The notes under the pieces were generated by a model. That model was given only the letters and a program-made list of their open reading frames with translations. It searched no databases and had not been told where the DNA came from. A stretch of 64,000 nucleotides of DNA from Dehalococcoidia bacterium (GTDB lineage: Bacteria > Chloroflexota > Dehalococcoidia > Lucifugimonadales > Australimonadaceae), in NCBI GenBank assembly GCA_963668465.1, contig OY764542.1, forward strand, positions 1,377,702 to 1,441,701, written 5' to 3'. The translations under genes and the position numbers were made by a program. Numbering within the stretch: the stretch's first letter is position 1; each line of letters starts with the position of its first letter. Shown one piece after another: positions 21,072-57,218 of the stretch.

Positions 21072-21638
21072 TTAGCGGTTCAGCTCTATCGGCTGCGAGC
21101 ATTCACCAGTCGCTTCGTCTATGTGCTCCAGCCGCTGACCGCGGCCCTTCATCAGCACGAGTTCCACAGCGCCTTCCGCTTCCGCAGCCTGCCGGTGCAC
21201 GTTGAACGGCCCGTCGTACAGGTAGCCGAACTCTCCCGGAAGGATGTGGTGGTCCTGCACCAACTCCAGCGTCGCGAGCGGGCGCGAGCCGTCGTCGACG
21301 CGGCGCCATGACGTGTAGCGCTCGCTGCCCTCCAGCAGGCCGATCACGACCCAGCCCTCGTGGCTGTGGATGGCGGTCGGTGTGTTCGGCGGGTACTGCG
21401 CGAGCAGCAGGCGGAACAGGCCGTCCGGGTCGTCGTACAGTTTCTGTCCCGGCAGGCCGGAACTGATGGTGGCAGGCTCGCCGATGCTCCAGAAGTAGTC
21501 GCGGCTGTTCTCCCCACCGAAGCGTTGCAGCATATGGCCTAATTGGAGGATCGACTCCATGCCGGCTTCATTGGCGTCGAGCGACCGCCTGACATCATGG
21601 CCGAACTCTTCAACGGTGTAGCGGCTGACTATGCTCAC
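21072..21638 (-). CDS. Cupin-fold (cysteine-dioxygenase-type-I-like) metalloprotein
   Basis: TAIHSHEGWVVIGLLEGSERYTSW plus a later H in the beta-barrel region. Confidence 0.55.
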   Translation of the reverse strand: MSIVSRYTVEEFGHDVRRSLDANEAGMESILQLGHMLQRFGGENSRDYFWSIGEPATISSGLPGQKLYDDPDGLFRLLLAQYPPNTPTAIHSHEGWVVIGLLEGSERYTSWRRVDDGSRPLATLELVQDHHILPGEFGYLYDGPFNVHRQAAEAEGAVELVLMKGRGQRLEHIDEATGECSQPIELNR

Positions 21639-21869
21639 GAAGGCCTCCTCGTGCAGGTGGAGTCATGTCGAATAGACAATGAACGGAAGAATCCTACTAC
21701 TATCGTCCTACGGAGACGTGGGAGCCTCACTGATCATGAGACGATGTATCGGATGGCTTGCGTTTGTAGTCACTGGTTGTTGCATGCACTATAATCCGTC
21801 ATTGCGACGGCAAAATCCGCCGCTTGGCTCCTGGCACTGGAACGAAAAGAACCTTGGGAGGGTCATCTG

Positions 21870-23009
21870 ATGAAAGTGCGAATGCTACTGGTCATATCGG
21901 TTCTTGCCGTCGCCTTGACCGCGATGGTCGCCTGTGGCGACGACGGGGAATCGGAAAGGGTTACGGAACTCGAATCTGAAGTGGCTTCGCTTCAGTCCGA
22001 GATCTCCACGCTAGAGGGGCGACAGGCGGCGGAAGACACGCTGAGTGTCGTGCTCGAACGTGGCAACCTCGTCTGTGGCGTCAAGGCGGACACCCCCGGC
22101 TTCGGCGTCTTCAACGCAGATGGCACTGTGGACGGGAACGATGCGGACTACTGCCGCGCCGTCGCTGCCGCGGTCTTCGGCGACAGCAGCAAGGTTGAAT
22201 TCAAGGAGGCCACCTCGGCCAACCGGTTCGAGCTCCTTGCCGCCAGGGAGATCGACGTGCTCATCCGCACCACCACCTGGACGGCGAGCAGGGACGCGGA
22301 CCTGAATGTCGCCTTCGCCCCCACCACGTTCTACGACGGCGCGGGCATCATGGTGAAGGCCGACGCCGACCTTTCGAGCGTGGACCAGCTTGGCGGCGCG
22401 ACCGTCTGCATCCTGGACGGCACCAGCACCCAGGGCGCGGTCTCCGACTACTTCACCGAACAGGGTCTGCGCTACGAAGAGTTGACCTTCCAGCAGAACC
22501 CAGAACTGCGCGCCGCATTCATCAGCGGCCAGTGCGATGCCTGGTCTTCCGACAAGTCCCAGCTGGGCGGCCACCAGTTCACGCTCCAGACCGACGACGG
22601 CATCTCGGCTGTGGTGCTTCCCGAGACGCTCTCCAAGGAGCCGCTCGGCCCGAGCATCCGCGACTACGACTCTGAGTGGGAAGACCTCGTGCGCTGGATC
22701 GTCAACGGCATGATCATCGCTGAGGAGCAGGGCGTCACCTCCGGCAACGTCAGCCAGATGGCTGCCAACCCACCGAACAACACCGTCGCCCGCCTGCTCG
22801 GCGTTGGCTTCGACGGCGGCGCTCCGAGCAACCTCGGTATCGGCCACGGCAAGATCGAGGGCACGTTCATGCAGGACGTCATCGCCCAGGTCGGCAACTA
22901 CGGCGAGGCATACGACGCCACGCTTGAAAGGGTCGGACTCACACGTGCGGGCTCCCCGAACGCCTCCTACCTGGACGGCGGTCTCCTCTACGCCCCGCCG
23001 ATGCGCTAA
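21870..23009 (+). CDS. Amino-acid ABC transporter substrate-binding lipoprotein (AapJ-like)
   Basis: Signal peptide and lipobox LTAMVACGDDG; RBS gggagg upstream; SBP family-3 pattern; operon with two permeases and an ATPase. Confidence 0.85.
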   Translation: MKVRMLLVISVLAVALTAMVACGDDGESERVTELESEVASLQSEISTLEGRQAAEDTLSVVLERGNLVCGVKADTPGFGVFNADGTVDGNDADYCRAVAAAVFGDSSKVEFKEATSANRFELLAAREIDVLIRTTTWTASRDADLNVAFAPTTFYDGAGIMVKADADLSSVDQLGGATVCILDGTSTQGAVSDYFTEQGLRYEELTFQQNPELRAAFISGQCDAWSSDKSQLGGHQFTLQTDDGISAVVLPETLSKEPLGPSIRDYDSEWEDLVRWIVNGMIIAEEQGVTSGNVSQMAANPPNNTVARLLGVGFDGGAPSNLGIGHGKIEGTFMQDVIAQVGNYGEAYDATLERVGLTRAGSPNASYLDGGLLYAPPMR

Positions 23010-48924: not shown

Positions 48925-50118
48925 CTACCTCTTGCCCGAAAGCCCCGTGAGGAGCGTTCCCCGGTCGATCTCCCCGAGCAGGCTCCCGTGCTCGCCGACC
49001 ACCGCGATGGGGTATTCGGTCTCGGCTGCCATCGGAACGACCTCCTCGATGAATGCATCCGGGTCCGTGGTGACTGCTGGGACGAGGTGGGCCTCTTCCA
49101 GGGACTCCTTACGCTGGAGGAGCAGGCCCCTCGCTTCCTCCGCCGTCAGCATCCCCTTGAGGGTGAAATCGCGCGCGATGAGGAACACCGCGTCGAGGCT
49201 GTGCTGGTTCATCGCGTACAGCGCGGCGCGGGGTCCCTGCCGTTCGTACATGACCACGCCGGGCTCCTGCATGATGGCCTTGGCCTGGATGACCTTCGCC
49301 CGCGATACGTCCCGCACAAAATCGGTGACGTAGGCGTCGGTCGGAAGCGTAACGACCTCCTCGGGCGAGCCCATCTGGATGATCTCGCCATCCCGCATGA
49401 TCGCGATGCGGTCGCCCATCTTGAGGGCCTCGTTCAGGTCGTGGGTGATGAACACGATGGTCTTCTGGAGTTCCGTCTGCAGGGTTAGGAGTTCGTCCTG
49501 CATCTCCCTCCGTATGAGCGGGTCGAGCCCGCTGAAGGGCTCGTCCATGAGCAGCACGGTGGGATTGGTCGCAAGCGCCCTGGCGAGGCCGACGCGCTGC
49601 TGCATCCCGCCGCTCATCTGATTGGGGTGGTTGTGTTCCCAGCCCTCCAGCCCCACAACCTTGATGGCCTCGAGAGCGGCCTCGTACCTCTGTTCCCTGT
49701 CCATGCCCCGCACTTCCAGCCCGTACACCACGTTGTCGATGACGTTGCGATGCGGGAGGAGGCCGTAGTGCTGGAAGACCATCGCGGTCTTGCTGCGCCG
49801 GAACTCCACCAACTGATTGGCGGAGTAGCCCTGGATGTCCTCGCCGTCGAAACAGACCTGCCCCGCAGTGGGCTCAGTGAGCCTGAGGAGGCAGCGCACC
49901 AGGGTGGACTTGCCACTGCCGGACAGGCCCATGACCACGAAGACTTCTCCCGTGTCCACAGTGAACGAAACGTCACGGAGTCCGACGACGACGCCCAGCG
50001 CCCGCCGTATCTCCTCGCGGGACATGGACTCGCACTCCGGCTGCAGGGCAGCCTCCGGGTTTTCGCCGAACACCTTCCAGAGGTTACTGACCTCTATCCG
50101 ACCACTGCCCTGCTCCAT
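48925..50118 (-). CDS. Glycine betaine/proline-type ABC transporter ATP-binding protein with C-terminal CBS pair (ProV/OpuAA-like)
   Basis: [49 protein letters not shown]-terminal CBS-like repeats. Confidence 0.9.
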   Translation of the reverse strand: MEQGSGRIEVSNLWKVFGENPEAALQPECESMSREEIRRALGVVVGLRDVSFTVDTGEVFVVMGLSGSGKSTLVRCLLRLTEPTAGQVCFDGEDIQGYSANQLVEFRRSKTAMVFQHYGLLPHRNVIDNVVYGLEVRGMDREQRYEAALEAIKVVGLEGWEHNHPNQMSGGMQQRVGLARALATNPTVLLMDEPFSGLDPLIRREMQDELLTLQTELQKTIVFITHDLNEALKMGDRIAIMRDGEIIQMGSPEEVVTLPTDAYVTDFVRDVSRAKVIQAKAIMQEPGVVMYERQGPRAALYAMNQHSLDAVFLIARDFTLKGMLTAEEARGLLLQRKESLEEAHLVPAVTTDPDAFIEEVVPMAAETEYPIAVVGEHGSLLGEIDRGTLLTGLSGKR

Positions 50119-50804
50119 GTGCGGATGGCTCCCATCGAATGGACCAATCCAACCCGATACTTACAGGATAGTAACGTTTAACGCCAATCGCAATGGAATT
50201 TTACTCCGGAATACGGCCTGCATCCGGCATGTATGCCGAAATCAGCAACGCAACGCGGCCACAGGCAGGGCGTGGGCGGTCGGCAGCTGCAGGCTGAGGG
50301 CGTGGCAGGGGTGATGAGTGCCTCTGCGACATCCGCCCCTTACGCGGTCCACCCGCTTCCCGTTACGCTGGTTGCATGACTCTGCCCACAGCCCGCCACC
50401 AGCCCGATGCAACACGATGCAACAGAATGAACACCGATGAGCGCACCCAAACTTTGAATTTCGAGTGGAATCTTGAAACCTTGAACGCGGGAAGCAGGCC
50501 ACGGCCTTGGAAACACCCCGGTTCAAGGAGTTCAAGATCCTCATTTCGGGCATGCGATTCACTCGTAAAAGGGCGTTCAAGATTTCAAAAAGAGGGCAGG
50601 TTTGGAATCTTGAACGGCGCTCAGGGCGCGGTTGTCATTCCGAGCGAAGCCGAGGAATCTCTCGGGAGGCGTCCCACTGCGAGCAAGCGCTCCCCGAGAG
50701 ATGTTTCGACTCCGCCTCTGGCTCCGCTCAACATGACATCCGCCCCACGCCTCACCCGTATCGGTTAAACTGATACTCCACAGCCCCCGTTCTCGGAGCG
50801 ATAC

Positions 50805-53289: not shown

Positions 53290-54012
53290 ATGACGTCCCT
53301 GCGGGGCTTCGCCAGCGAGCCGGGCAGGCCAGGGCTGGGTTGGGCAGGTCCACTGCGAGTCCGCGCGCTGCTCCTGATCGGTCTGCTCGCCGCCTCCGGG
53401 CTCTCGGCAGCCTGCCTGCCGCCGACCCCAACCCCGACGCCGGTGCTGTGTGAGTTCGAGGGACACGTCGTAGCCGACGACGGCATGTCCTGCGCCGAAC
53501 CCACCCCTACGCCGACCCCAACTCCCGTCACCACCCCAACTCCCACCCCCGGACCGACGGCAACCCCGACTTCCACGCCTACGCCCAGCCCCACGCCTAC
53601 GTCCACACCTACCCCCACTCCCGCGCCGCAGAGAGTCTCGGTCGATTTCCTGATGGAGTTCATGAAGACCAACCGGGAGCAGTTGCTGGGCTCCTACGGA
53701 GGAGAGCAGATCGAACTGTTCACCAACGCTGTCGTGGCGGTGGAGGCCTATGAGAATTTGACCTGGTCCATCCTCATGGCCGAAGACTCAGTGCCGGATG
53801 AGACAGAAGAGCACGTCACGAACGTGTGGCAGATCCGGGCAGAGGTGTCATCCGACGTTGCGGCCGCCGCCGCTGTGGGCGAACCCTACGCGGTCGAGTG
53901 CGTCGTAGACCTGATCGACACGAAAGACGAAGAGGCCGAAGACGCCGATACGGGAGATGACGTGACCCCTCTCAAGAGGACAAACCGGCTGTACTGCTTC
54001 GGGCAGAGCTGA
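53290..54012 (+). CDS. Hypothetical lipoprotein with long Pro/Thr-rich linker
   Basis: LLIGLLAASGLSAAC lipobox; TPTPTPTPVTTPTPTPGPTATPTSTPTPSPTPTSTPTPTP; acidic C-terminal domain; no family recognised. Confidence 0.6.
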   Translation: MTSLRGFASEPGRPGLGWAGPLRVRALLLIGLLAASGLSAACLPPTPTPTPVLCEFEGHVVADDGMSCAEPTPTPTPTPVTTPTPTPGPTATPTSTPTPSPTPTSTPTPTPAPQRVSVDFLMEFMKTNREQLLGSYGGEQIELFTNAVVAVEAYENLTWSILMAEDSVPDETEEHVTNVWQIRAEVSSDVAAAAAVGEPYAVECVVDLIDTKDEEAEDADTGDDVTPLKRTNRLYCFGQS

Positions 54013-54033
54013 GCAGACGTTGAAGCATCAGCG

Positions 54034-54411
54034 ATGAATCCCATCGAAAGGCGCAGGTTCCAGACGCTCGTACGGGGGATGCTCCCCGCCCCGTTTGTCT
54101 ACGTCGCCGTCGCCGTGGTCTACTTCGCGTTCTTCGGCAACGAGCCGTTCTTCGGCGCGCGGCTCGCCACCATCGTGGCGGTCGCCACCGGAATCGCCGT
54201 GCCCCTGGTCTCACTCCTCGTGACCGCGAACGCACTCACGAACGAGCGCCCTCCCGCACGCCTGGCGCAGACGCTCCTGCTGCTGGCCCACGCCCCCGGC
54301 CTCGTAGGGTTCGTGCTCACGGTTGGCGCAGACCAACTCTGGTACAGCCTCGCCCTCGGCGCGGAAGGCTTCGCCATCCTCCTCGTCATCCGCTCCCGGC
54401 TGGGCGGGTAG
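54034..54411 (+). CDS. Hypothetical small membrane protein (about 4 TM)
   Basis: 125 aa, hydrophobic helices separated by short charged loops. Confidence 0.5.
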   Translation: MNPIERRRFQTLVRGMLPAPFVYVAVAVVYFAFFGNEPFFGARLATIVAVATGIAVPLVSLLVTANALTNERPPARLAQTLLLLAHAPGLVGFVLTVGADQLWYSLALGAEGFAILLVIRSRLGG

Positions 54412-54453
54412 CATTACATAGAGCCAACACCTTACCTGTCGGAGCAATTCACC

Positions 54454-55407
54454 ATGTCCACTCTGCCTCACAAGTGTCCTATCTGGAAAACCCCGGCAGA
54501 TAAACAACTGAATCGAGGACTATACGCCATTGAATCTCCTCGCGCCGGGGGGCCGTATCTCATAGATTTGGACGCCGTCGATCGTGCCGAGTCACTAAGT
54601 GATAGGGCCAAGGCACGACTAACTACTATGCTTGTTCATCAGCGACAGCAAGGGATTAGAGTGCCCTTGGTGACGAGAGAAACCTTATATTATGCCTCGT
54701 CGAGAGCTTCGCTGCCTGTCTACGAGCGAGCAAAGAGGTTGTTGAAATACCTTACTAATTCCATCCCTCTCGGAACTTCTGCTAATCTGGAGTGCTCAGC
54801 TGACGAGCCCCTAATCATCTCCGAGTCCGTTGATTCGGCTGAAGTTCGGTCGTTCCTGGATTATCTAGAAGACCGTGGGTGGATAGGATGCAAGCATCTT
54901 CTTGGAGGTAACGCGCACTGCACAATTACTATTGATGGCTATGCAGAGATTGAAGGGGTGCAGCAGCAGGTAGATTCCGCCCAGGCTTTCGTGGCGATGT
55001 GGCTTGACGACGAAATGAACGATGCCTTCCAAACGGGCATCGCGCAAGCAATCGAGAATACGGGCTATGCAGACTATCGTGTTGATATAGAGATAGCACA
55101 TTCCTCAGATGCCGGTAAAATAGACGACACGATAATCGCAGAGATTCGCCGCTCACGTTTCTTGATTGCCGATTTCACTCACGGAAATACTGGTATCCGT
55201 GGCAGCGTCTACTACGAAGCCGGATTCGCCCATGGCTTGGGAATTCCCGTCATCTATGCTTGCAGAAAAGACCAGCTCGACAAACTCCATTTCGACACTC
55301 GGCAGTATTACCACGTCGCTTGGGAAACGCCTGAAGAGTTGCGTAAGGACCTCGAAACGCGAATCCTAGCTGTGGTTGGCGAAGGACCATTGAAGAATAA
55401 CCGATGA
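54454..55407 (+). CDS. Unknown N-terminal region + wHTH-like segment + nucleoside-2-deoxyribosyltransferase/TIR-like C-terminal domain protein (AT-rich island)
   Basis: 317 aa; RBS ggag upstream. C-terminal FVAMWLDDEMNDAF...RVD...KIDDTIIAEIRRSRFLIADFT...SVYYEAGFAHGLGIPVIYACRKD...LHFD pattern. Mid segment VRSFLDYLEDRGWI...ITIDGYAEIEG. Composition clearly AT-richer than the flanks. Confidence 0.6.
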   Translation: MSTLPHKCPIWKTPADKQLNRGLYAIESPRAGGPYLIDLDAVDRAESLSDRAKARLTTMLVHQRQQGIRVPLVTRETLYYASSRASLPVYERAKRLLKYLTNSIPLGTSANLECSADEPLIISESVDSAEVRSFLDYLEDRGWIGCKHLLGGNAHCTITIDGYAEIEGVQQQVDSAQAFVAMWLDDEMNDAFQTGIAQAIENTGYADYRVDIEIAHSSDAGKIDDTIIAEIRRSRFLIADFTHGNTGIRGSVYYEAGFAHGLGIPVIYACRKDQLDKLHFDTRQYYHVAWETPEELRKDLETRILAVVGEGPLKNNR

Positions 55408-55424
55408 TGGCCTTGAACTTGGCC

Positions 55425-56078
55425 CTACTCCGGGCGCAGCAGCCAGACGCGAGCGAACGGGTGCGGCTCGGAGGTCTCCGCCTCGATGCGCATCCCCGAC
55501 TGCGCGAACACCCAGAGCCAGTCGTCCAGCGTGTACTTGTTGTGGATGCGGAACTGCTCCAGCGCCCGCTCGTAGCGCGTCTCCTCCGGCTCGCCCGGCT
55601 CGACCAGCCTACGCTCGACGTACTCCCGCATCGGCTGGCGGAACCAGTCGAACAGCAGCATCCGCCCGTCCGGCTTCAGCACCCGTGTCGCCTGCTTCCG
55701 CAGGAACGAGAACGGGTCGTCGAACCCGTGCAGCACCGCCGCCATCGTGAGCAGGTCGACCGACCCATCGTCGTACGGCAGCGGCGCGCTCTCCACGTTG
55801 GCCAACACGAGCGTTGGCACGGGCCCGGCGTAGTCGATGGCGCGCGCGTTCTCGATCATCGCCTCGTTGGCGTCGACGCCGTGGAGTGTCGCGTCCGGCA
55901 GTCGCTCGGAGAGGTCGCGCAGGAAGAGGCCGGGCCCCGGCCCCACGTCCACGATCACCGGCGCAGGCGGCAGCACCGGCGCGACTTGCTCGTCCCAGAA
56001 CCGCCAGAACGCATCGTTGAAGCGCAGCGTGTACCGCTCCAACTGGCGGCGGAGGGCGCGGTCGTCCCGCTGCGTCAT
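55425..56078 (-). CDS. Class I SAM-dependent methyltransferase (paralog B)
   Basis: Start ATG 56078 (MTQRDD...); VDVGPGPGLFLRDLSERLPDATLHGVDANEAMIENA; LLFDW. Confidence 0.82.
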   Translation of the reverse strand: MTQRDDRALRRQLERYTLRFNDAFWRFWDEQVAPVLPPAPVIVDVGPGPGLFLRDLSERLPDATLHGVDANEAMIENARAIDYAGPVPTLVLANVESAPLPYDDGSVDLLTMAAVLHGFDDPFSFLRKQATRVLKPDGRMLLFDWFRQPMREYVERRLVEPGEPEETRYERALEQFRIHNKYTLDDWLWVFAQSGMRIEAETSEPHPFARVWLLRPE

Positions 56079-56719
56079 CGCGGCACCCCCGCAAGGGCGA
56101 CGTGGCTGGTGCGCGGATGTGCCTCGCCGACGAGGTCGAACCCGCCCTCTGCCAGCAGCCACCGCCACTCGTCCAGGGTGAAGCGGTTGTGGTACGGCTG
56201 GAGGCTCATCAGTGCCGCCGGGTCGTTGCCGAACCCGCCCCTACCCTCGATGTAGCCGGGGAGCGTCTGCCGTTTCCAGTCGAAGAGCAGGTAGACCCCA
56301 CCCGGACGGAGCATCCTGCGCACCTCCGCCAACAGCACGAATGGGTTGTCGAGGAAGCAGGCCACGTTCGCGGAGATGCAGAGGTCGAGCGACGCGTCCT
56401 CCACCGGGTACGGCGCGTGATTGAGATCGTGCAAGGTGAACGACGACGCTGCGGTGGCGTAGTCGAGCCCTTTGGCGTTCGCGAGCATCGCCTTGGACAC
56501 GTCCACGCCGCGCAGCGTGGCGTCCGGCAGCCGCGACGACAACTCCTGTAGGAGCAGTCCCGCTCCGCAGCCGAGGTCGGCGATGGCAGGAGCGTCGCCG
56601 GTGCGCGGGCGCACCTGGGACTCGAAGAACTCCCAGAACGCGAGCGGGTAGCGCCGTCCGAAGTCCGACGACATCCGCTCCACCATCGCGCTCTGGTTCC
56701 AGCGGGAATCGGTGGTCAT
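56075..56719 (-). CDS. Class I SAM-dependent methyltransferase (paralog A)
   Basis: Start ATG 56719 (MTTDSRW...); ADLGCGAGLLLQELSSRLPDATLRGVDVSKAMLANA; LLFDW; ATGA overlap with paralog B. Confidence 0.82.
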   Translation of the reverse strand: MTTDSRWNQSAMVERMSSDFGRRYPLAFWEFFESQVRPRTGDAPAIADLGCGAGLLLQELSSRLPDATLRGVDVSKAMLANAKGLDYATAASSFTLHDLNHAPYPVEDASLDLCISANVACFLDNPFVLLAEVRRMLRPGGVYLLFDWKRQTLPGYIEGRGGFGNDPAALMSLQPYHNRFTLDEWRWLLAEGGFDLVGEAHPRTSHVALAGVPR

Positions 56720-56727
56720 GCCGCCGC

Positions 56728-57138
56728 CTACGCCTCCATGTTGACGGTGACGCCCTGCTCTTTGAAGACGTCGCTGCCGGCCTGCATCGCGTTGAACGCG
56801 GCGGGCAGCCCGGCGTACGGGATCGCCTGCAGGAATACTTCCGCTATCTCCTCCGGCGTAATGCCGAGGTGCAGCGCATAGCGGGTGTAAGCCCCGACCT
56901 GCGGCGTGCGCCCCAGCGCCGTCATCATGCCGAGCACGATCATGCAGCGCGTCCTGAGGTCGATGCGCTCGCGCGACCATACCTCGCCGAAGTTGAAGCC
57001 GATAACGAAGTCCTCCAGCCCCGGGACCATGTCGAGCCCGGCGGCATTGCCGGTGCTCCGCGAGCCTTCCGAGCCACTGATCGCTTTTCGTACCGCGCGT
57101 CCCCGCGCCTTGCTCTCCTCCGCCTGGTGCAGCGTCAT
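56728..57138 (-). CDS. Carboxymuconolactone decarboxylase family protein
   Basis: Start ATG 57138 with aggagg RBS 7 nt upstream; FGEVWSRERIDLRTRCMIVLGMMTALG...EEIAEVFLQAIPYAGLPAAFNA. Confidence 0.82.
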   Translation of the reverse strand: MTLHQAEESKARGRAVRKAISGSEGSRSTGNAAGLDMVPGLEDFVIGFNFGEVWSRERIDLRTRCMIVLGMMTALGRTPQVGAYTRYALHLGITPEEIAEVFLQAIPYAGLPAAFNAMQAGSDVFKEQGVTVNMEA

Positions 57139-57218
57139 GAGCAGTCCTCCTGTAGTGAATGTGTGCCGCACGATGTCGGCGGGCGCGATGCTACACGAGA
57201 AGGCGCTCCTTCGGCGCG

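Follow-up and report, generated by a model that had tools for sequence, protein, structure and literature searches.

An AT-rich single-gene island in a Dehalococcoidia genome encodes a winged-helix protein with an NDT/TIR-like domain, a candidate stand-alone defence effector

Introduction

In the effectors of type II-A retrons (RcaT of Retron-Sen2; Retron-Eco1/Ec86), a domain resembling nucleoside 2'-deoxyribosyltransferases (NDT) is combined with a winged helix (PMC7736814). Swarozyc (KpSwz) consists of a DUF4062 TIR-like NADase with an auxiliary domain of HTH (helix-turn-helix)/winged type that binds the phage portal (bioRxiv 10.64898/2026.05.01.722283). Fusions of AbiJ-NTD1 with an NDT domain have been predicted to be abortive-infection toxins (Anantharaman et al. 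2013, PMC3710099). Here we describe a gene for a 317-aa protein of related composition, the sole gene of an AT-rich island at positions 54412–55424 of a 64,000-nt stretch of the genome of a Dehalococcoidia bacterium (Chloroflexota; GenBank assembly GCA_963668465.1, contig OY764542.1, positions 1,377,702 to 1,441,701 of the forward strand), hereafter the window. Swarozyc and the retron II-A NDT effectors are its closest analogues, and it is a member of neither.

An initial annotation of the window had proposed that the gene is a horizontally acquired one-gene sensor-effector. Using structure prediction, profile searches and a comparison of genomic loci, we arrive at a similar reading: with a probability of about 0.55, the island is predicted to encode a self-contained, horizontally exchanged sensor-effector of biological conflict, most likely anti-phage. 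One of the points in favour of a defence effector is that the profile of an effector from a defence system matches the family. In kind, the protein may be likened to the TIR/NDT-type effectors, as a single-protein sensor-effector with an NDT/TIR-like enzyme.

Results

An NDT/TIR-like domain with a predicted catalytic glutamate

The C-terminal part of the protein had been read as an NDT/TIR-like domain of flavodoxin-like fold. The open reading frame (ORF), the DNA string quoted from it and the peptide motifs FVAMW, KIDDTIIAEIRRSRFLIADFT, VYYEAGFAHGLGIPVIY and HFD are all present, and the fold is supported by an AlphaFold2 model searched with Foldseek as well as by profile matches. The top Foldseek matches are nucleoside 2'-deoxyribosyltransferases, DNPH1/Rcl and the TIR-APAZ protein of SPARTA, with a probability of 1.0 and a target-normalised template modelling (TM) score of 0.5–0.68. 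The NDT and DNPH1 structures matched at this probability are 8qc0, 9emx, 2a0k, 7o62, 4kxl and 8rpt; they rank above the SPARTA TIR-APAZ chains 8i87 and 8spo, which are also matched at probability 1.0 over 138–156 aligned columns with a root-mean-square deviation of 3.9–5.0. The domain is marked by the motifs FVAMWF, KIDDxIIAEIRRSRF, ADFTHG, RGGVYYEAGFAHGLG and HFDTRQY.

At the level of sequence profiles, PF05014 (clan Nribosyltransf) is matched at E <= 0.01 by 39 of 51 family members, and its cut-off is exceeded by relatives on Bacillus (31.7 bits) and Leptospira (29.2 bits) plasmids. The PADLOC model PDLC00733 ('Effector/TIR'), which we take to be a CBASS effector model, matches the island protein at 1.3e-8 and all 11 family members tested at 1e-8 to 1e-13. 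The match covers positions 258–367 of the 388-aa profile and reaches position 171 in one member. No Pfam TIR-type model (TIR, TIR_2, TIR-like PF10137, DUF1863, DUF4062) is matched at E <= 10, and whole-protein searches of the PDB, NCBIfam and Pfam returned nothing significant besides a weak match to PF05014. Membership of the NDT superfamily is supported by the fold and the active-site motif, and is borderline by the Pfam threshold.

A glutamate of the motif YYEAG, E255, had been placed where these enzymes carry their catalytic glutamate, and a profile alignment to rat and human Rcl/DNPH1 agrees: GGVYYEAGFAhGLG pairs with LGVGYELGRAVALG, with E255 on the glutamate of GVGYELG. The glutamate of the GVGYE motif is the catalytic residue of Rcl/DNPH1. 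E255 is kept in at least 90% of alignment A1 and is invariant in alignment A4. Other polar residues are invariant or nearly so (D240, R249, H279, D281 and T282, and also R233, R235 and R283), a constellation that suggests a phosphate-rich ligand.

One homologue, P0009 (64% identical), has GIVQCVFRSWLCLRSRDS in place of GIRGSVYYEAGFAHGLGIP in the region of the catalytic motif (A1 columns ~347–365), which looks like a local assembly frameshift or a decayed copy.

An N-terminal domain without fold match and an acidic winged helix

The AlphaFold2 model, built with a 51-sequence alignment, has a predicted local distance difference test (pLDDT) score of 85.6 over the whole chain; residues 1–176 modelled alone reach 92.7. 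The initial annotation had been unable to place the first ~120 residues, and the first ~88 are still without a match even by fold search: for residues 1–88, no match was found in Pfam, NCBIfam, PADLOC, PDB sequences, PDB folds or BFVD folds (Foldseek). Across the family, this domain carries the motifs CPIW, SPRAGGxY, KARLTT and PxVT, with C8, I10, W11, R30, G33, T57 and P71 invariant.

The winged helix that had been expected at residues ~125–167 does exist, and its borders are now drawn at residues ~89–159. It consists of H1 (residues 89–103, with an ERAxRLL motif), S1 (109–113), H2 (117–122), H3 (128–140) and a wing (144–158), and Foldseek matches it to MarR, PadR, TubR, AspA, the C-terminal domain of CRP and eS10 at probabilities of 0.99–1.0. 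In a search of the PDB with the full-family profile, the only match was a marginal one to the N-terminal winged HTH (wHTH) of P1 ParA. The H2–H3 region has a mean net charge of -3.4 over the 51 sequences and no conserved lysine or arginine; the conserved basic residues of the winged helix (R92, R95 and K/R98) sit in H1. Judging by these residues, canonical reading of DNA by the winged helix is doubtful, because H2–H3 is acidic and has no conserved basic residues. Of the proposed one-gene sensor-effector, the architecture has held up, but DNA as the sensed cue is in doubt. Among the alleles that occupy the same genomic site, described below, the winged helix is the fastest-evolving part of the protein (60–66% identity, dN/dS ~0.26). 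In the linker that joins it to the catalytic domain, G162 and Y163 are conserved.

Table 1. Features of the island, its gene and its immediate flanks (positions in the window)
Feature	Position	Strand	Remarks
Membrane protein gene, 125 aa, core flank	54034..54411	+	Stop codon forms the left insert border; GC3 0.889
Left insert end, AT-richer 42-nt leader before the ATG	54412..54453	+	Absent from the L089 and L090 empty sites
Coding sequence, 317 aa, sole gene of the island	54454..55407	+	ORF; ATG start, stop codon included
N-terminal domain, fold without match	54454..54717	+	Residues 1–88; three-stranded sheet 16–38, helices 39–83
Winged helix	54718..54930	+	Residues 89–159; predicted secondary structure and Foldseek
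Linker helix, winged helix to catalytic domain	54931..54981	+	Residues 160–176; helix 160–171/175 in both models
Flavodoxin-like NDT/DNPH1/TIR-like domain, putative N-glycosidase effector	54982..55404	+	Residues 177–317
E255 codon (GAA), predicted catalytic nucleophile	55216..55218	+	Profile alignment to Rcl/DNPH1
Right insert end, 17-nt spacer up to the convergent methyltransferase stop codon	55408..55424	+	Sequence and allele alignment
Class I S-adenosylmethionine (SAM)-dependent methyltransferase gene, core flank, convergent	55425..56078	-	ORF; 217 aa by orthologue comparison

Comparison with described systems

Like the island protein, Swarozyc is a single-protein system with a patchy distribution and defence genes nearby. 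In sequence space, its catalytic domain likewise falls in the region between TIR and NDT, and it has a conserved catalytic glutamate. The two are also built alike, with a helical stalk that joins the enzyme to an HTH/winged-helix module, which in Swarozyc senses a phage component. The order of domains is reversed, however: in the island protein the predicted sensor is N-terminal and the enzyme C-terminal, and there is an extra N-terminal domain of 88 residues. We rejected membership of Swarozyc on this opposite order and on the lack of a match to PF13271 (DUF4062) at E <= 10.

The retron II-A effectors share with the island protein the combination of an NDT-like domain and a winged helix in a protein of ~300 aa, and the retron version is a toxic defence effector (PMC7736814). 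In these effectors, unlike in the island protein, the NDT domain is N-terminal and the wHTH C-terminal, and they need an adjacent reverse transcriptase and msr-msd RNA. Assignment to this type was rejected as well: the order is opposite, there is no ORF of reverse-transcriptase size nearby and no Rfam RNA in the window, and no PADLOC retron-effector profile is matched. For the nearest neighbours on each side of the 84 loci compared below, the 25 most frequent Pfam families include no reverse-transcriptase family.

With DNPH1/Rcl and the NDTs of PF05014, the protein shares the flavodoxin-like fold, the G-x-x-Y-E-x-G nucleophile motif and the order of the surrounding strands. It differs from them in a six-residue insert (HGxxGxRG) before the motif, in HFDTRQY, a motif specific to the family, in the 175-residue N-terminal extension, and in a genomic context that is accessory and mobile, not metabolic. 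The TIR domain of SPARTA TIR-APAZ is a structural match, and this oligomerisation-activated NADase can serve as a model for the mechanism proposed below; the island protein, in contrast, has neither an Argonaute partner nor an APAZ region, and identity is 15–16%. What is shared with PDLC00733 is the catalytic domain alone, which in every member tested matches the C-terminal ~110 residues of the model, and no cyclase or signalling partner is encoded near the island gene. AbiJ-NTD1-NDT fusions resemble the protein in pairing an N-terminal domain, there an Abi-type sensor, with a C-terminal NDT domain. By description, on which this comparison is based, AbiJ-NTD1 is mostly alpha-helical and ~140 aa long, whereas the island protein begins with a beta-sheet and continues into a winged helix; it matches none of the AbiJ_NTD models of Pfam.

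Membership of CBASS, Pycsar or Thoeris was rejected: no recurrent partner occurs in more than 13 of the 84 loci, the recurrent ones are restriction-modification (R-M) genes, and the neighbours in the window are core genes. A type II toxin-antitoxin system was likewise rejected, because the insert leaves just 42 nt before and 17 nt after the gene and no small neighbour of >=70 aa is conserved.

Insertion into an otherwise conserved locus

The island had been described as AT-rich, with a compositional break at the borders of its ORF, and windowed GC content and codon usage confirm this. Its 1013 nt have a GC content of 0.507 (50.7%) against a background of ~66%: the remaining 1013-nt windows of the 64 kb average 0.660 (standard deviation 0.025, minimum 0.595), which puts the island ~6 standard deviations under the mean and makes it the strongest compositional outlier of the window. 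GC content at third codon positions (GC3) is 0.516 in the island gene and 0.86–0.94 in the genes for LeuS, the 125-aa membrane protein, the methyltransferase, the carboxymuconolactone decarboxylase-like protein (CMD) and SbcC, so the gap between the gene and its flanks lies at the level of codons.

By probing metagenomes with the flanking methyltransferase, we found close relatives of the locus. Two metagenomic contigs, L089 and L090, have an empty site, in which the membrane-protein and methyltransferase genes converge with a gap of 15–20 nt. In L089, the 5 nt 'gcgcc' stand in place of the 1013 nt of the window. L089 is closely related to the window (amino acid identity of 95.9% for LeuS, 95.4% for the methyltransferase and 93% for SbcC), and LeuS of L090 is 92.8% identical. 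These empty sites set the insert borders at 54412 and 55424. They agree with the break at the ORF borders and with the convergence of the methyltransferase gene 17 nt past the stop codon, both read earlier from the window. Since sister genomes have empty sites, the horizontal acquisition postulated for the gene is a real insertion.

Two further contigs, L087 and L088, carry the gene at the same site (encoding P0002 and P0003). Their flanking proteins are 92–99% identical to those of the window, apart from the membrane protein (82–98%; 97.6% in L088 and 81.6% in L087) and SbcC (81%), with dS of 0.2–0.5; the methyltransferase is 92–95% identical in L087, L088 and L089. The alleles of the island gene, by contrast, share 70% identity, with dS ~1.45, near saturation and ~5x that of the flanks, a ratio that is approximate since dS is compressed in genes with GC3 >0.9. 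dN/dS is 0.13–0.14 for the L087 and L088 alleles against that of the window and 0.20 between L087 and L088. This indicates that the gene is functional and under purifying selection. Because dS is ~5x that of the flanks while dN/dS is low, the alleles appear to have diverged long before the host genomes did and to be swapped at one hotspot, with purifying selection acting on them. Faster protein evolution as the cause of the 70% identity was rejected on the same values. The three alleles have unrelated upstream leaders, and the 42-nt leader of the window cannot be aligned to the longer upstream regions of L087 and L088.

The insert of L087 is 1.9 kb long and holds a 157-aa ORF besides the island gene. 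It is bracketed by a 103-nt direct duplication of the methyltransferase 3' end (L087:6945-7047 and L087:8953-9055, 98% identical), which suggests integration of a circular intermediate via homologous recombination.

In the window itself, no convincing direct, inverted or terminal repeats were found at the island borders. The 64 kb contain no integrase or transposase ORF, no detected tRNA or tmRNA, and no Rfam family at gathering thresholds, and a scan of 53900–55900 for promoters and terminators found no sigma-70-like promoter and no intrinsic terminator.

A stand-alone gene, often near restriction-modification loci

We compared 84 loci of the family by all-against-all clustering of the neighbouring ORFs. 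The most frequent family of neighbours is present in 13 of them, so there is no obligatory partner, and no small neighbour (>=70 aa) is conserved across the loci. The absence of a conserved neighbour supports the description of the gene as stand-alone. In the window there is also no room for an antitoxin gene, since the non-coding DNA around the gene amounts to only 42 + 17 nt. A conserved housekeeping context such as nucleoside salvage was not found: the contexts vary, and 35 of the 84 loci have R-M or defence-type genes.

R-M or AAA_15/21 clusters lie within 7 kb of the gene in these 35 loci and within 1.5 kb in 29, where 35 is a lower bound, as only neighbour families that recur among the 84 loci were scored. 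The recurrent neighbours are almost all R-M or defence-type: N6_N4 methylase-HNH fusions, type I HsdS/HsdM/HsdR, type ISP enzymes, AAA_15/AAA_21 ATPases, MNT/HEPN-type pairs, DUF1156, DUF499, HerA, HEPN_Swt1 and XamI. Upstream neighbours include Methylase_S (7 loci), N6_N4_Mtase (5), Polbeta/NTP_transf_2 (5), N6_Mtase (4), Type_ISP_C (3), DUF1156 (2) and HerA (2). On the downstream side are N6_N4_Mtase (4), HNH (3), UvrD (3–4), DUF499 (2), AAA_21 (2) and HEPN_Swt1 (2), and also T1RH and RE_XamI.

In six loci, the gene is embedded in a type I R-M operon. Its order in L023 is hsdM, NTase_sub_bind, Polbeta+hsdS, the island-gene homologue and hsdR, with gaps of 39 and 18 nt around the homologue, and the gene set is identical in L030, L043, L044, L045 and L054. 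A slot inside type I R-M operons is the classical location of anticodon nucleases and Abi genes. The remaining loci are, as in the window, single-gene insertions amid housekeeping genes (e.g. L001-L003).

A large and widely distributed family

A word-indexed search recovered 2,974 relatives. The best 120 of them are ~280–390 aa long and 44–70% identical, with a query coverage of at least 87%, and those of the 120 with a named source are labelled hypothetical. An exhaustive profile search found 13,920 clusters at 50% identity with E <= 1e-3, 3,800 of them with E <= 1e-30. At least 589 genomes of the GTDB species representatives encode the family. Carriers include Dehalococcoidia and other Chloroflexota, Opitutales, Latescibacterota, Binatia, Thermodesulfobacteriota, Alpha- and Gammaproteobacteria, Poribacteria, Nitrospirales and Bdellovibrionales. 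Many carriers belong to one long-read series of metagenome-assembled genomes (MAGs). The names of the carrier MAGs Poribacteria IRC4_bin_27, CAR4_bin_12, RHO1_bin_59 and SB0666_bin_1 look like those of sponge-symbiont bins. Certain habitats may be richer in the family than others.

The foreign composition seen in the window recurs across the family. GC content of the gene is under that of its flanks in 82 of the 84 loci, by more than 0.03 in 75, with a mean difference of -0.093; it mostly falls within 0.44–0.57 in hosts of 0.47–0.72. Relatives also occur on plasmids. One of them, on a conjugative plasmid of Bradyrhizobium, is full-length and adjoins a large helicase and a ThiF-like protein. 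Copies on plasmids of Bacillus mycoides and Leptospira interrogans, labelled 'nucleoside 2-deoxyribosyltransferase' in RefSeq, keep the wHTH and NDT part (residues ~116–309) and have a different N-terminus; the Leptospira copy is flanked by a SEFIR protein and a 772-aa methyltransferase. In one relative, a C-terminal HARE-HTH has been added. Sensor-effector defence proteins typically exchange their terminal modules in this way while the effector stays the same.

No PADLOC-DB 2.0 model represents the full protein, and the literature searched on NDT-like and TIR-like defence proteins, PF05014 and systematic screens yielded analogues, but no paper in which this architecture is described. A tblastn search of the INPHARED phage genomes (50,697 GenBank phage records) gave no match. 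The PHROG family phrog_16139, whose function is not annotated, matches the wHTH and NDT part (residues 135–305) at 2.7e-40.

Discussion

We propose that the protein is an auto-inhibited N-glycosidase, held inactive in the resting cell. When its N-terminal module binds an infection cue, the protein would oligomerise, and oligomerisation would complete the active sites. In NDT and TIR enzymes, active sites form between subunits. A phage protein or other ligand would be a more likely cue than duplex DNA. An acidic winged helix fits the precedent of Swarozyc, since the HTH/winged domain there binds the phage portal and not DNA. Once active, the enzyme would hydrolyse the N-glycosidic bond of an essential nucleotide, either NAD(P)+, as TIR-like NADases do, or a (deoxy)nucleoside phosphate, as DNPH1 does, and growth or phage replication would be halted through abortive infection or nucleotide depletion.

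Several observations weigh against a defence effector of this kind. The Foldseek E-values are only 2e-3 to 3e-2, which is explained by the multi-domain query; the island protein matches PF05014 weakly, at 17 bits and E = 0.0065 against a cut-off of 28.8; and the profile of the domain aligns to Rcl at E ~0.5. The 88 N-terminal residues are strongly conserved across phyla; receptors for phage proteins that evolve fast do not usually show this, and a conserved ligand or an autoinhibitory contact fits it better. The surroundings are housekeeping genes and not a defence island in the window and in ~58% of loci, and the defence neighbourhood of the others was judged against a rough expectation from general knowledge, not against matched random genes. 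The literature searched reports no defence or enzymatic activity for any family member, and NAD+, deoxynucleoside monophosphates (dNMP) and DNA are all candidate substrates.

DNA as the substrate leads to an alternative that we consider unlikely: an N-glycosylase directed at DNA, which cooperates with restriction systems or acts in their manner. Its N-terminal module would bring the NDT-like domain to foreign or modified DNA, from which bases would be excised. Frequent adjacency to or embedding in type I, type ISP and methyltransferase-HNH R-M loci would suit such an enzyme, as would the extra HARE-HTH, an R-M-linked domain, of one relative and the four invariant or near-invariant arginines of the catalytic domain (R233, R235, R249 and R283). 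NDT and DNPH1 use 2'-deoxyribosyl substrates, and DNA has been proposed as the target of Abi N-terminal-NDT fusions (Anantharaman et al. 2013, PMC3710099). Yet an R-M partner is missing from most loci, the window among them, H2–H3 is net acidic (mean -3.4) and has no conserved basic residue, and the substrates of known NDT, DNPH1 and TIR-like enzymes are free nucleosides, free nucleotides or NAD+. The presence/absence polymorphism, the replacement of alleles at one hotspot and the persistently foreign composition are also what a selfish gene might display, that is, a gene of the toxin or addiction type on a mobile cassette, which persists by its own transfer and by post-segregational effects and not by protecting against phages. 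Its occurrence on conjugative and mobilizable plasmids and the MNT/HEPN-type pairs nearby point the same way; the missing antitoxin partner, for which the window has no space, borders that bear no integrase, transposase or repeat signature, and long-term purifying selection in chromosomes make this explanation quite improbable.

Still less probable is a metabolic or sanitising enzyme, either a DNPH1-like dNMP N-hydrolase or a nucleoside deoxyribosyltransferase of salvage, encoded by an ordinary accessory gene. NDT and DNPH1 are the best matches in fold and sequence, RefSeq names the Bacillus and Leptospira relatives accordingly, and the neighbours in the window and in L001-L003 are housekeeping genes. 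But the gene is absent from sister genomes, lacks a conserved salvage context, is embedded in R-M operons elsewhere and is of foreign composition in 82 of the 84 loci, and its product has ~175 conserved extra N-terminal residues that canonical NDT and DNPH1 proteins (~130–160 aa) do not have. The least probable explanation, in our view, is a one-component regulator, whose NDT/TIR/SLOG-like domain would merely bind a nucleotide signal and whose winged helix would be the DNA-binding output. It shares the layout of such regulators, an N-terminal wHTH followed by a Rossmann-like ligand-binding domain, and MarR and PadR are among the fold matches; the invariance of an enzyme-like constellation (E255, D240, R249, H279, D281 and T282), the acidic H2–H3 and the lack of a conserved adjacent operon to regulate speak against it.

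A further reading, which we put forward tentatively as an unlikely case, makes the family a new immune mechanism instead of one more NADase. A DNPH1-like N-glycosidase, switched on by the new 88-residue sensor fold, would destroy phage-specific deoxynucleotides (e.g. 5-hydroxymethylated or hypermodified ones) or excise bases of phage DNA, and its alleles would circulate among unrelated phyla as a self-replacing cassette of ~50% GC at fixed hotspots of the chromosome. If true, such 'restriction' at the level of the nucleotide pool or of DNA bases would explain the habitual pairing with R-M.

If the prediction of a horizontally exchanged anti-phage sensor-effector holds, the family would be among the larger unnamed single-gene defence families. 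It would represent a third independent wiring of an NDT/TIR-like N-glycosidase into immunity, besides the retron II-A effectors and Swarozyc, and residues 1–88 would be a new sensor fold. The carriers are mostly uncultured Chloroflexota and other environmental lineages, out of reach of defence screens centred on E. coli. The locus illustrates cleanly how a defence-type gene behaves in nature as a replaceable cassette, with a shared site, saturated dS, empty sites and GC3 of ~0.5 against ~0.9 in the host. Its interest comes mainly from the size of the uncharacterised family, the N-terminal fold without match and the clean population-genetic signature.

Other features of the neighbourhood

Further neighbours of the island in the window are LeuS, two more small genes and SbcC; no partner ORF of reverse-transcriptase size is present. 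Milder dips in GC content (0.56–0.58) occur at 50000–50800 and 21400–22200. One of them lies in the non-coding stretch upstream of leuS, in which no Rfam family was found at gathering thresholds. Directly past leuS, a 240-aa ORF (53290–54012, local GC 0.60–0.65) has a signal-like N-terminus and long Pro/Thr-rich repeats (PTPTPTP); L088 has a 116-aa counterpart with 90% identity and L087 has none.

On the other side of the island, two tandem paralogous genes for class I SAM-dependent methyltransferases, with ~38% mutual identity, occupy 55425–56980 on the minus strand and are followed by the CMD gene. Pfam Methyltransf_11/23/25/31 are recorded for the L087 orthologue of the flanking methyltransferase, and the order of the methyltransferase pair and CMD is kept in L087 and L089. 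Between CMD and SbcC, L087 has a second low-GC insertion (L087:10687-13876; GC 0.48–0.49, GC3 0.43–0.46), which encodes a NOV_C-domain protein and a SACS (sacsin-like) protein. It is missing from the window, where the corresponding site lies at ~57172–57218, and is another variable cassette in the same neighbourhood.

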